Part shown: in pieces, positions 2,111-5,087 of the stretch
How positions within the stretch are numbered: position 1 is the stretch's first letter
Layout: every line of letters begins with the position of its first letter
Origin: an uncultured archaeon
GTDB taxonomy: Archaea > Aenigmatarchaeota > Aenigmatarchaeia > CG10238-14 > SCSR01
DNA: 64,000 nucleotides
Direction of reading: 5' to 3'
Assembly (NCBI GenBank): GCA_964539655.1
Contig: CAZIJH010000003.1
Coordinates: forward strand, 12,113 to 76,112
Position numbers and translations under genes: made by a program
The notes under the pieces: model-generated
The model's input: only the letters and a program-made list of their open reading frames with translations
The model's database searches: none
What the model was told of the DNA's origin: nothing

Positions 2111-4473
2111 TTCAACACCAGCCACTTGGTGGATGGCTTTGGCTTCGATTTGCTGAAGAAGGACGTGCCAAGCTGCGATAAGCTCGGGTTATCCGCATGG
2201 AGGATTCGACCCCGAGATCTCCTAATGGGATTCCTTCTCTTCGGAGAATTCCGCGAGGAATAGGAACGTGGTGAAGTGAAGCATCTTAGTCAACCATGGG
2301 AAAAGAAGACAATAGTGATGTCATTAGTAACGGCGAGTGAAAGTGACGGAGGGCAAACCGAACTTCCGCCGAAAGGCGGCAAGGATGTGGGGTTGTAGGA
2401 CTTGGGTCTTTCTCAAACCGCAGAGTCGAACTTCCCTGGAAAGGGAGGCATTAAAGTGTGACAGCCACGTAGACGAATGCGGGAAAGAAAATGCCGAGTA
2501 TCCTGAATAGCGTTTCTCGGATATGAAGCGCGAACCTGGCAGGATTAACTGCCAACCCTAAATACAAACGAAGTCCGATAGCGTACTAGTACGGTGACGG
2601 AACGCTGAAAAAAACTGCGCGAGCAGGGTGAAAAGAGTCTGAAACCAAGTTGGTATTAGTCAGTCATGGCGCGGAAGGTTCCAGCAGGAAGGAAAAAACT
2701 GCGAAGTTTCAGTACGATTGCTGGATTACAGTGTCATGACGTCCGTTTCGAAAAATGGGGCAGGGAGTTTGCCTCTGCGGCGAGGTTAATCGGTCTAAGC
2801 CGAGAAGCCGTAGCGAAAGCGACAGGGCCGTGACATCGCAAGATGCGTGGGCCGCCGTATGAAAGTGCGGGAAGTCGCTGGGGCAAGACCTGAAGCCGGT
2901 CGATCTAATCCTGGTTAGGCTGAAGTCCTGCGAAAGCAGGGTGGAGGGCCGTTACCGATTGTGAGCTGCCAATCCTTCGGGTGAGCCGGGATTAGGGGTG
3001 AAAAGCCTAACGAGACCGGGGATAGCTGGTTCCTCTCGAAATGCATGTAAGTGCAGTCTGGATCGAGCAGGCCCGTAGGGTAGAGTTACTAATTGGGAAG
3101 TCAAGGGTCGAAAGACCCAGCTTTGCTGTTAAACTCCGAACCTATTGGCTGCGTGGAAGTCTGGAATGAGTTAGTATGGTTAAGCTATACTGTCGAAAGG
3201 GGAACAACCCAAACTGAGGTTAAGGCCTCTAAATGTCAGCTGAACGTAGAAGGGAGTCTGAATCCACAAACAGTAGGGCTGTAGGCTCAGAAGCAGCCAT
3301 CAGTTAAAAAGTGTGTAATAACTTACCTACCGAGGATTTGGGCCCTTAAAATGGAAGAGACTAAGCTGACTGCCGAAACCCCAGCTTGAGAAAGAGTAGA
3401 GAGGCGTGCCGTGTGGACAGAAGCATCTGCGTGAGCAGTTGTGGACCGCGCGGCATTGAAGATCCTGCCATGAGTAGCAACATAGTTGAGTGAGAATCTC
3501 AACCGCCTAAAGGACAAGGGTTTGCCAGCAATGTATGTCAGCTGGCGGTTAGTCGGTCCTAACGCCGCACTTTACCGTAGCGGTGGAAAGGGAAATCGGT
3601 TAATATTCCGATACCATGAGAGTACGAATGCGGCAACGCAAGCCGCGATTCTGACGTTTCCGGATAGGGTGACGCAAGTCAACCGATACAGACCTGTGGA
3701 GTCTTGTAACGAGGAGAAACAGGTCAAAGCGGGAGCAGCCCTGCGTATGCAGGGTTCATCCGATTCCAGGAGCCCGTGAAAAGGAATCGCGGAAGAATCT
3801 TTCATGTCCGTACCGAGAACCGTAACAGGTGTCCATGCTGAGAAGGCAAAGGCGTGTTGGGTGAAACCAGTCTAGGGAAATCGGCAAATTAGTTCCGTAC
3901 CTTAGGTATAAGGAATGCCTGTTTCCCCGCAAGGGGAAGCAGGTCTCAGTAACAAGGGGTAAGCGTCTGTTTAACAAAAACGCAGGAGACTGCTAATGAG
4001 AAATCATGTGTATAGTCTCTGAGTCCTGCCCAGTACTGGTCGGTTAAAACCATTTTCAAGTGGTCTAAGCCCCAGTAAACGGCGGCAGTAACTCTGACTG
4101 TCGTAAAGTAGCGTAATCCCTTGCCGTTTAATTAACGGCCTGTCTGAATGGATTCACGACTTGCCCGCTGTCCCAGGCTGGTGCCCAGCGAAATTGCCAT
4201 TCTGGTGAATAAGCCAGAGACCTCCAGTGGGAAACGAAGACCCCGTAGAGCTTTACTGCAGTTTGTTGTTGTGGTAAAGTTTCTGTTGCATAGCGTAGCT
4301 AGTACCCGTCATAGGCTTAGGTTTTGGCCGAAAGCCGAGGGGAAAGTGTAACACTAGCCTTCAGGGACTTTACTGCTTACCTGCAAAGGGACAGCAGCAG
4401 ATGGGCAGTTCGGCTGGGGCGGTACGACCTTGAGAAGGTATCAAGGTCTCCCAAAGTTCAGCTCATCCGGGGC

Positions 4474-4685
4474 ATGGTGCAAGTCGCATTTTGCCTCGAG
4501 AAGGAGCAAAAGCTTTCTAATCGAGGTGTTTTCGGGAAATTTTCTCAGAAGCTTTGACGCGGTGATTATTACCGTTCCAGTCTGAAACAGAATGAAGACG
4601 GAGGTAGCTGATGAGCGTCCATAATGAGAATTTTTTATCCGAATACATTTTAATTACGATTTGTGATCGATTTGCATCACCCGAC
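4474..4685 (+). other. 23S rRNA BHB intron 1 (212 nt, helix 84 loop)
   Basis: Canonical BHB: TC-CGGG-GC^A / CCCG-AC^A-GA plus 12-bp stem TGGTGCAAGTCG/CGATTTGCATCA; splicing restores TCCGGG-GCAGAAA-TCCGGA. Confidence 0.93.
4556..4619 (+). ncRNA. Box C/D guide RNA 3 inside intron 1 (D guide predicted for U2438)
   Basis: Stem GACGC/GCGTC; C GTGATTA 4562-4568; D' CTGA 4582-4585; C' ATGAAGA 4592-4598; D ATGA 4611-4614; guide GAGGTAGCT 9/9 complementary to 4815-4823. Confidence 0.8.
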
Positions 4686-4857
4686 AGAAATCCGGAGTAG
4701 AGTGCAAACGCAAAAGCTGGACTGACTGGATTCCGCAAAGCGAGGAATCCAGCTGCGAAAGCATGGGTTAGCGATACATCGTGGACTCTTAATGGGTCCC
4801 GGTGGTCTAAGAAAAGCTACCTCGGGGATAATGGGCCCGTGGCCGGTGAAAGCCCAC

Positions 4858-4988
4858 AGTGGTTTTCGCTCCCACATTTGAATCTGATAGCAAGAGCATC
4901 AGTGTTCGGTCAAAAAAGAACACGAACACGGTGTTCTGAACTAGACGATCTTCCAATTCGAAGGAGTTGATATATTCCAAACGGGTAT
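4858..4988 (+). other. 23S rRNA BHB intron 2 (131 nt, helix 89)
   Basis: BHB: AA-GCCC-AC^A-GT / AC-GGGT-AT^A-TT; splicing restores GAAAGCCCACATTGACCCGG. Confidence 0.9.
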
Positions 4989-5087
4989 ATTGACCCGGCG
5001 CGTTGGTGCGTCGCTGTCGGCTCCCCCTCACCTGGCTGTGCAGCAGCAGCCAAGGGTACAGGTGTCCACTGGTTAAAAGGGGACGCT

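Follow-up and report, generated by a model that had tools for sequence, protein, structure and literature searches.

A predicted two-guide box C/D small RNA in a bulge-helix-bulge intron of the 23S rRNA gene that it would target in Aenigmatarchaeota

The 23S ribosomal RNA (rRNA) gene of an uncultured archaeon from the Aenigmatarchaeota (assembly GCA_964539655.1, contig CAZIJH010000003.1) from groundwater contains an insert at positions 4474-4685 of the analyzed stretch of DNA, which is 64,000 nucleotides long and is called the window below. Judging from sequence comparisons, this insert is very probably a bulge-helix-bulge (BHB) intron with a working two-guide box C/D small RNA (sRNA) that acts on the rRNA of its own host gene. 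Among known systems, it most closely resembles the C/D sRNA located in the BHB intron of the tryptophan transfer RNA precursor (pre-tRNA-Trp). The rRNA-intron sRNA described here is widespread in one class of archaea, the phylum of which belongs to DPANN.

Compared with the archaeal Rfam model, the host gene has two inserts (Table 1). In the local alignment to LSU_rRNA_archaea, the first insert corresponds to 216 nt versus 4 in the model and the second to 133 nt versus 2, each within a different hairpin loop. Positions in Escherichia coli numbering were taken from an alignment of the intron-less 23S form to rrlH (NC_000913.3), which placed the first insert in the loop of helix 84 and the second in the loop of helix 89. 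The spliced form aligns with E. coli without gaps across 2306/2307. Removal of the first intron leaves the loop GGGGCAGAAAUCC, and seven intron-less relatives show GGGUCAGAAAUCC or near variants at this place.

A strict BHB search yielded a single solution for the helix 84 insert, with the 3-4-3 layout and an exon helix h, a central helix H, and an intron helix h' of 2, 4, and 12 bp, respectively. The exon helix is formed by the pairs U4466-A4688 and C4467-G4687, the central helix by CGGG (4468-4471) and CCCG (4680-4683), and the bulges by G4472 C4473/A4474 and A4684 C4685/A4686. A BHB intron in helix 84 had been proposed in the original prediction, which a model made from the letters of the window, and both the placement of the insert and the canonical motif agree with it. 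The junctions given there, GGGGC/AGAAA for the spliced rRNA and CCGAC/ATGGT for the circle, follow from the BHB cut positions. In unconstrained folding, the region 4455-4705 has a z-score of -3.31, with one of 200 shuffles equally stable.

No open reading frame (ORF) lies wholly within the intron, the longest one starting inside being of 29 aa, as expected from the earlier claim that the payload is not a homing endonuclease. An Rfam scan of 4250-5000 at E <= 1 matched only the LSU rRNA and none of the curated C/D families. Two other types of intron were considered and rejected. The group I covariance model remained unmatched at E <= 1. A homing-endonuclease intron would require a LAGLIDADG or similar frame, which is absent, and 212 nt are too short for one.

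The payload of the intron is a box C/D unit of 64 nt at 4556-4619, arranged in the order C box, 13-nt guide, D' box, 6-nt spacer, C' box, 12-nt guide, and D box. A compact unit of this size had been predicted, together with the nested stems TTCTCA/TGAGAA and GACGC/GCGTC; the full box layout was found, and both stems are present in the minimum-energy fold. The target nucleotide of such an sRNA is expected at position N+5, that is, at the fifth pair upstream of the D or D' box. For the D guide, this is the pair of A4606 with U4818, in a target that begins 130 nt past the intron. Thus, the nine-of-nine match about 130 nt downstream and the assignment of N+5 to U2438 were both reproduced, the latter also in the rrlH numbering. 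The D' guide was absent from the original prediction. It forms 12 pairs in a row with the P-loop (nine Watson-Crick, two internal G.U, and one terminal G.U), and its N+5 pair joins C4577 with G4417, the equivalent of G2251. The D' target ends 50 nt upstream of the intron, and both targets belong to domain V of the same rRNA.

The first of these target nucleotides is a known site of modification. G2251 is listed as 2'-O-methylguanosine (Gm) in E. coli (made by RlmB), H. marismortui (by fibrillarin with an sRNA), yeast, human, and Arabidopsis (PMC11542601), and it is predicted as a C/D target in three of seven archaea (PMC4644070).

Table 1. Coordinates, in the window, of the 23S rRNA gene, its two introns, and the predicted parts of the helix 84 intron
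Feature	Start	End	Strand	Basis
23S rRNA gene (host), two inserts versus the archaeal model	2107	5436	+	Rfam RF02540 LSU_rRNA_archaea, 2430.3 bits, model positions 1-2987
D' target (predicted): P-loop, helix 80; G4417 = E. coli G2251 at N+5	4413	4424	+	12 consecutive pairs
5' exon side of BHB: exon helix 4466-4467, CGGG 4468-4471, bulge bases G4472 C4473; cut after 4473	4466	4473	+	sequence, strict BHB search
BHB intron, 212 nt, helix 84 loop (E. coli 2306/2307)	4474	4685	+	model alignment, strict BHB search, rrlH alignment
Intron helix h', 5' strand, pairs with 4668-4679, 12 bp	4475	4486	+	BHB search; minimum-energy and centroid folds
Outer nested stem TTCTCA, pairs with TGAGAA 4625-4630	4542	4547	+	minimum-energy fold
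sRNA terminal stem, 5' strand GACGC, pairs with GCGUC 4615-4619	4556	4560	+	minimum-energy fold
C box GUGAUUA	4562	4568	+	motif; G3A4 in 66/66 distinct members
D' guide UUACCGUUCCAGU, 13 nt	4569	4581	+	target pairing, box layout
D' box CUGA	4582	4585	+	motif; GA in 63/66
C' box AUGAAGA	4592	4598	+	motif; C' position 6 pairs with D' position 1 in 58/66
D guide CGGAGGUAGCUG, 12 nt, core 4601-4609	4599	4610	+	target pairing, box layout
D box AUGA	4611	4614	+	motif; GA in 65/66
sRNA terminal stem, 3' strand GCGUC	4615	4619	+	fold
3' side of BHB: h' 4668-4679, CCCG 4680-4683, bulge A4684 C4685/A4686; cut after 4685	4668	4686	+	strict BHB search
D target (predicted), E. coli 2435-2443; U4818 = E. 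coli U2438 at N+5	4815	4823	+	9/9 Watson-Crick pairs
Second BHB intron, 131 nt, helix 89 loop (E. coli 2477/2478)	4858	4988	+	model alignment and rrlH alignment

A search for introns at the same site in relatives, which had been suggested in the original prediction, found 44 of them in 43 genomes, with lengths from 83 to 214 nt and at exactly the same position. The central helix of the BHB motif is fully paired in 43 of these introns. Its six Watson-Crick variants are CGGG/CCCG, GAGG/CCUC, CUGG/CCAG, GUGG/CCGC, UGGG/CCCA, and AGGG/CCCU, and G.U variants occur as well; thus, the intron strand tracks the changes of the exon strand. The outer helix h' is represented by 43 distinct sequences among the 44 introns and is paired in all of them. 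A strict hBHBh' motif with h of at least 2 bp is present in 34 introns, the other ten being nine with an exon helix of 1 bp and one with a mismatch in the central helix. In most relatives, the outer helix of the BHB itself is the terminal stem of the sRNA.

The boxes are conserved in intron-borne and free-standing copies taken together. They were counted in a model-based alignment of 71 matches, of which 66 are distinct (44 helix 84 introns, one intron at another site, and 21 free-standing copies). The GA dinucleotide is retained in the C box of all 66 members, in 65 D boxes, in 63 D' boxes, and in 57 C' boxes. Position 6 of the C box forms a Watson-Crick pair with position 1 of the D box in 61 of the 66 (U-A in 43, A-U in 8, G-C in 6, and C-G in 4 cases), the genome of the window having U6-A1. 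The equivalent pair between the C' and D' boxes is Watson-Crick in 58 members (U-A 31, A-U 18, G-C 9). Among 16 relatives that were parsed, the spacer from C to D' measures 12 nt in 15 and 13 nt in one, and the spacer from C' to D measures 12 nt in 12, 13 nt in one, and 14 nt in three. The distance from guide to box is fixed, which always places the same two nucleotides at N+5. Introns that conserve an ORF and lose the boxes had been named beforehand as evidence that would speak against a guide RNA; the 44 homologous introns keep the boxes and guides, and an ORF is found in none of them.

The guides show the same kind of constraint. For the D guide, 38 intron/target pairs were counted, with the G006 row left out and five rows (including G001) containing no target. 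The spacing GUAGCU-N-box is kept, at least nine contiguous pairs extend over 2435-2443 in 29 of the 38, and a mismatch at 2437 occurs in one. For the D' guide, 38 introns have the P-loop in the same stretch. In 30 of them, a 10-mer pairs at no fewer than nine of ten positions with 2248-2257 and is followed by one base and then by the box. Several substitutions in the target are compensated in the guide. The change of C2254 to U is accompanied by G to A in the guide in all four genomes that have it (G008, G022, G066, and G082). Other examples are provided by G2436 to A with C to U in the guide (G002) and C2437 to U with G to A in the guide (G082).

The remaining eight D' guides all belong to the genus g5 and are different. 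In this genus (G004, L014:1437 and L014:1367; G072-G078), the D' guide is replaced by GUGACCUUUGAUU, which forms 11 consecutive pairs elsewhere in the host rRNA, at a site located some 35 nt upstream of the intron. Thus, the guide appears to have been retargeted within its host. No further match was found in the g5 genomes for the sRNA model, which would detect a G2251 guide of the same family. Variation is also seen at the strain level. In the groundwater DNA run X1, three contigs carry 22-27 other letters in place of 4616-4677 and keep the sRNA part, which points to strain-level variation outside the sRNA.

The phylogenetic distribution of the sRNA was considered at several levels. By a DNA search, the helix 84 region was recovered in 24 of 40 relatives, of which 16 have the insert, seven are bare, and one (G039) is different. 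The 16 inserts, 84-175 nt long, occupy exactly the same site, and 15 of them contain the full C/D layout. In G039 (L023), a 962-nt stretch with a long open frame breaks the 23S gene upstream of helix 84, and the helix 84 loop has about 36 extra bases; the 962-nt stretch may be an endonuclease-bearing intron. A covariance model was built from 17 copies of the sRNA, 16 intron-borne and one free-standing, and searched against 118 genomes of the order. It matched 75 genomes, nearly always exactly once in each, with E-values from 1e-5 to 1e-20.

The location of the sRNA was then tabulated for the 64 genomes of the order in which the exon directly 3' of the site was found. The helix 84 intron contains it, with no other copy found, in 43 genomes, and another 23S intron does so in one (G068), again with no other copy found. 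In 17 genomes, the sRNA was detected solely at a distance, either on a different contig or over 50 kb from the site. The model was unmatched in three genomes, and the intron-borne and free-standing forms were found together in none. Fourteen further genomes of the order have an sRNA match, and the exon was not assembled in them. The intron-borne state is distributed over four families (36 genomes in f1, 6 in f5, and 1 each in f2 and f6), and the free-standing state over three (10 in f4, 5 in f5, and 2 in f1). These data fit the earlier suggestion that the host would retain the intron for the sake of its payload: intron-bearing genomes have their sole copy there, and intron-less relatives keep an ortholog elsewhere. 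Because the intron copy is the only copy in the cell of a class-wide guide, loss of the intron would mean loss of the guide.

The 11 free-standing copies that were inspected have GC-rich terminal stems of 5-6 bp and AT-rich, non-rRNA flanks. At the two free-standing loci scanned with Rfam, L030 (G016) and L131 (G191), no rRNA was found. In G017, two near-identical free-standing copies are located on two contigs (L052 and L061) with the same upstream flank, and this may be an assembly duplicate. The L131 locus of G191 apparently has two copies in tandem.

The family was also traced outside the order. When prokaryote species, each represented by one genome, were scanned for an exact pattern, 22 places were returned, all of them members of this sRNA family; 10 of these are located in the helix 84 intron, and the other 12 are free-standing. 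Among 151 sampled genomes of the phylum, all from one class, the sRNA model has matches in 82. None of the best 20 matches outside the order is in helix 84, and three of them are in BHB introns at E. coli 2597/2598. These three introns, found in other orders (G143, L128; G192, L133; G202, L134), are 187-204 nt long and carry an orthologous sRNA. The flanks of the remaining 17 look non-rRNA, one of them having been checked by Rfam. Within the order, the genome G068 (L093) has the sRNA in a BHB intron near E. coli 2234/2235, 13 nt before the D' target. Thus, the same guide is found at three intron sites of domain V of the 23S rRNA: 2234/2235, 2306/2307, and 2597/2598.

A different intron interrupts the D' target itself in five relatives. 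In G023 (L009, about 1273-1356), G009, G098, G094, and G092a, an 84-nt BHB mini-intron with the central helix GCUG/CAGC is located within the P-loop, between the Gs of GGGG. It holds a different complete C/D sRNA, with C AUGAAGA, D' AUGA, C' AUGAUUA, and D CUGA. No target of this sRNA was found within two mismatches in the 23S rRNA of the window, and one match of 11 pairs is present in the G023 locus (L009:2471). Since the P-loop is split by the mini-intron, the D' guide of the helix 84 sRNA can pair there only after splicing, and action on the already spliced P-loop must therefore be possible.

The proteins that such a system would use are encoded in the genome. Fibrillarin (C2:25002-25628) has the Nop5 gene directly beside it (C2:25678-26316), L7Ae is present, and the splicing endonuclease EndA and the ligase RtcB were identified with 94.6 and 537.8 bits, respectively. 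A second match to the L7Ae family, scoring 63 bits (C7:18977-19252), contains a single in-frame TGA and may represent a paralogue (for example, eL30), a gene with recoding, or a broken gene.

Based on these observations, the following scenario can be proposed. The pre-23S rRNA would be transcribed with the intron inside, and the helix 84 exon bases and intron ends would fold into the 3-4-3 bulge-helix-bulge. EndA would cleave after C4473 and after C4685, and RtcB would ligate the exons and restore the helix 84 loop, the intron probably being circularised too. In the intron RNA, L7Ae would bind at the C/D kink-turn and the C'/D' kink-loop, followed by Nop5 and fibrillarin. The D' guide, paired with the P-loop, would then direct 2'-O-methylation of G2251, and the D guide, paired with 2435-2443, that of U2438. 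Because the targets lie 50 nt upstream and 130 nt downstream of the intron, the ribonucleoprotein (RNP) could act either in cis, while the transcript is still nascent, or in trans, once the intron has been excised. We infer splicing, circle formation, RNP assembly, both methylations, and the cis or trans mode of action from the features described above.

Several observations weigh against this interpretation, in part or as a whole. The minimum-energy fold retains the native helix 84 stem and not the BHB, the BHB conformer being 4.3 kcal/mol less favorable. Archaeal rRNA introns reportedly require, as a rule, such an exon rearrangement for splicing (Kjems and Garrett, 1991). The exon helix of the BHB is short, with 2 bp in the window and 1 bp in nine of the 44 introns. 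The boxes of this sRNA depart from the textbook RUGAUGA and CUGA, with GUGAUUA as the C box and AUGA as the D box. The non-textbook U6 of the C box stands opposite the non-textbook A1 of the D box, so that the pair beside the sheared G.A pairs is preserved. The two internal G.U pairs of the D' duplex adjoin the target pair, and eight of the 38 D guides have an uncompensated mismatch at 2441, all of them with a C2442 target. We know of no reported methylation at U2438.

Other such points concern the data. The alignment used for the box counts was fitted to the model and is therefore biased towards it. Most of the compared genomes are incomplete metagenome bins, and stricter filters were applied in the large searches, so that "none" and "no second copy" in the counts above mean that none was found. 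A search among sequencing runs found no RNA run that contains this organism, the best RNA shares being 0.15-0.17. When three RNA runs and one DNA run were compared with the window, contigs from RNA (X15, X17) did join 4472 to 4685, skipping 212 letters with two that fit either side, and 4857 to 4989, skipping 131. In their exon parts, 7 letters out of 66 and 13 out of 173 differ from the window, which is about 90% identity. These contigs thus come from relatives, possibly with intron-less genes, and we do not count them as evidence of splicing. A metagenome DNA contig spans 4397-4715 with zero differences; it probably derives from the source sample and is not independent support. Finally, for the genome of the window alone, the D match of 9 bp is equalled by 54 of 2000 shuffled guides, and the D' match of 12 pairs, with G.U allowed, by 89 of 2000. 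The single sequence is thus suggestive only, and it is the comparative data that make the guide assignment solid.

An alternative role for a spliced C/D RNP is that of a chaperone of domain V folding, which would perform little or no methylation and would keep the P-loop and 2435-2443 apart until assembly proceeds. Some eukaryotic C/D small nucleolar RNAs (snoRNAs), for example, U3 and U14, function as chaperones. In favor of such a role are the two targets, which flank the intron within one domain, the G.U pairs beside the target pair in the window, and the guide mismatch in eight genomes. Nevertheless, we consider this role improbable. The distance from the guide core to the box is invariant, and G2251 and U2438 are found at N+5 in intron-borne and free-standing copies alike; this spacing matters for methylation and not for mere pairing. 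In addition, G2251 is methylated across the domains of life, and fibrillarin is encoded.

Another possibility is that the insert is not spliced at all and that the mature 23S rRNA retains it, with helix 84 expanded. In this case, the kink-turns would recruit L7Ae, which is also a ribosomal protein, and the guide-like stretches would make intramolecular contacts or have a role limited to assembly. The unconstrained fold, with its native helix 84 stem extended by the insert, would suit such an expansion, and helix 84 is located at the subunit surface, where extra RNA might be tolerable. We regard this as very unlikely, since 43 of 44 introns preserve the 3-4-3 BHB and changes in the exon are compensated in the intron, which a retained expansion would not need. 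Moreover, 17 genomes with a bare helix 84 have the sRNA as a free-standing gene, never both, and the sRNA also occurs at two other 23S positions, each with a BHB of its own. In the mature ribosome, a guide paired with the P-loop would block an element of the catalytic center.

The interpretation of the insert as a spliced intron with a methylation guide is compatible with one account of its origin, namely, that a selfish mobile BHB element gave rise to the intron and captured the sRNA as a passenger, which now guards the element against loss. The patchy distribution of the intron-borne and free-standing states across families, the three different 23S sites, and the strain-to-strain variation seen within one metagenome in the 3' part of the intron could all be explained in this way. 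As a rival explanation, it is highly improbable: neither an endonuclease nor any other mobility gene is found in the intron, and the constraint on boxes and guides, with one copy per genome, argues for a need of the host. In particular, the strong form of this account, in which the host no longer needs the guide, is unlikely. The last alternative, a chance resemblance, in which an AT-rich insert happens to contain words similar to the boxes and a complement of 9 nt, has the shuffled-guide counts in its favor and is rejected by the comparative data, that is, by one model match in nearly every matched genome of the order (E-values as given above) and by the covariation of boxes and guides, which leave it a negligible probability.

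A more speculative scenario of intron movement is that these C/D mini-introns are mobile "guide-RNA introns". The RNP would dock on its target, and the excised, possibly circular, intron would be reinserted nearby by a reversed endonuclease/ligase reaction and then fixed in the DNA. Such a mechanism would explain why one guide occurs as a free-standing gene and at three sites of domain V, why a different sRNA is found in the P-loop mini-intron, and why the intron-borne and free-standing states exclude each other. At present, we find it unlikely. If true, it would show how modification guides can come to reside in introns in prokaryotes, in parallel with the intronic snoRNAs of eukaryotes or as a foreshadowing of them.

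Several other features of the locus and of the genome were observed. The second intron of the window, in the loop of helix 89, has the central helix CCCA/GGGU; inspection by eye only revealed no convincing set of C/D boxes in it. A homologous insert is also present in G017, and contigs with variant content in this intron were seen in the groundwater DNA run X1. The 23S gene is solitary, with neither a 16S nor a 5S gene adjoining, and no 16S rRNA gene was found among the 23 contigs of the assembly. The genome comprises 771 kb, with completeness of 95.6%.

Archaeal rRNA introns have been known since 1985 and are seen either as bare hairpins or as elements that carry homing endonucleases. An example of the latter is the I-DmoI intron found in Desulfurococcus mobilis 23S rRNA, which, like the intron described here, is BHB-bounded and located in a conserved 23S region, as described in a 2013 review (PMC3608112). 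Here, in contrast to the LAGLIDADG introns, there is no ORF, and the payload is a small RNA. The same review left open whether rRNA introns give functional non-coding RNAs (PMC3608112).

Most similar to our case is the BHB intron of pre-tRNA-Trp in Haloferax volcanii and in Pyrococcus (sR50), whose C/D sRNA guides Cm34 and Um39 of its own tRNA (PMC7994747, PMC7714728). Both systems comprise a two-guide C/D sRNA in a BHB intron with both targets in the host exons, and release by the splicing endonuclease and the occurrence of the intron as a circle, which are features of the tRNA-Trp system, are here predicted from sequence (PMC7994747, PMC7714728, PMC9014305). The host, however, is here the 23S rRNA and not a tRNA, and the targets belong to other helices, at distances of 50 and 130 nt from the splice sites. 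The ortholog is found either as a free-standing gene or at one of at least three rRNA intron positions. In most relatives, the outer helix of the BHB doubles as the terminal stem of the sRNA.

The similarity to eukaryotic intronic C/D snoRNAs is that an rRNA methylation guide is carried by an intron, has no promoter of its own, and is released by splicing (PMC7994747). However, the eukaryotic introns are spliceosomal, their hosts are transcribed by RNA polymerase II, and the host transcript is not the target, whereas here the host is the target and release by EndA is predicted. In eukaryotes, exonucleases trim the lariat to yield the intronic snoRNA.

The same P-loop nucleotide is the target of E. 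coli RlmB, of fibrillarin with an sRNA in H. marismortui (Gm1950), and of the 25S-Gm2620 C/D snoRNP in Arabidopsis (PMC11542601, PMC4644070). The known guides for Gm2251 are free-standing or located in other host genes, and none is reported within an rRNA gene, in contrast to the guide described here. A related phenomenon is the 16S-D RNA of Archaeoglobus and Sulfolobus, which is reportedly cut from the pre-rRNA at BHB motifs and religated, has C/D-like motifs, and binds L7Ae (Tang et al., 2002). Unlike our intron, which interrupts the mature rRNA, it is said to derive from the external spacer and to have no assigned methylation targets. In a 2021 review, the genomic contexts given for archaeal C/D sRNAs are tRNA introns, regions downstream of tRNAs, intergenic regions, and gene flanks, and rRNA introns are absent (PMC7994747). 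Our full-text searches, the coverage of which excluded most subscription journals and supplements, found no published C/D sRNA in an rRNA intron.

In summary, the location of the sole guide copy for Gm2251, which is among the most widely shared rRNA modifications, in the intron provides a simple selective reason for keeping an ORF-less intron. The design of a guide inside an intron of its own target is extended from one tRNA to the catalytic domain of the ribosome, and a prokaryotic lineage would express rRNA modification guides from introns, as animals do. The alternation of the guide between a free-standing gene and introns at three sites offers a natural comparative system for the coupling of modification and splicing in ribosome assembly, as well as for the origin and movement of introns.

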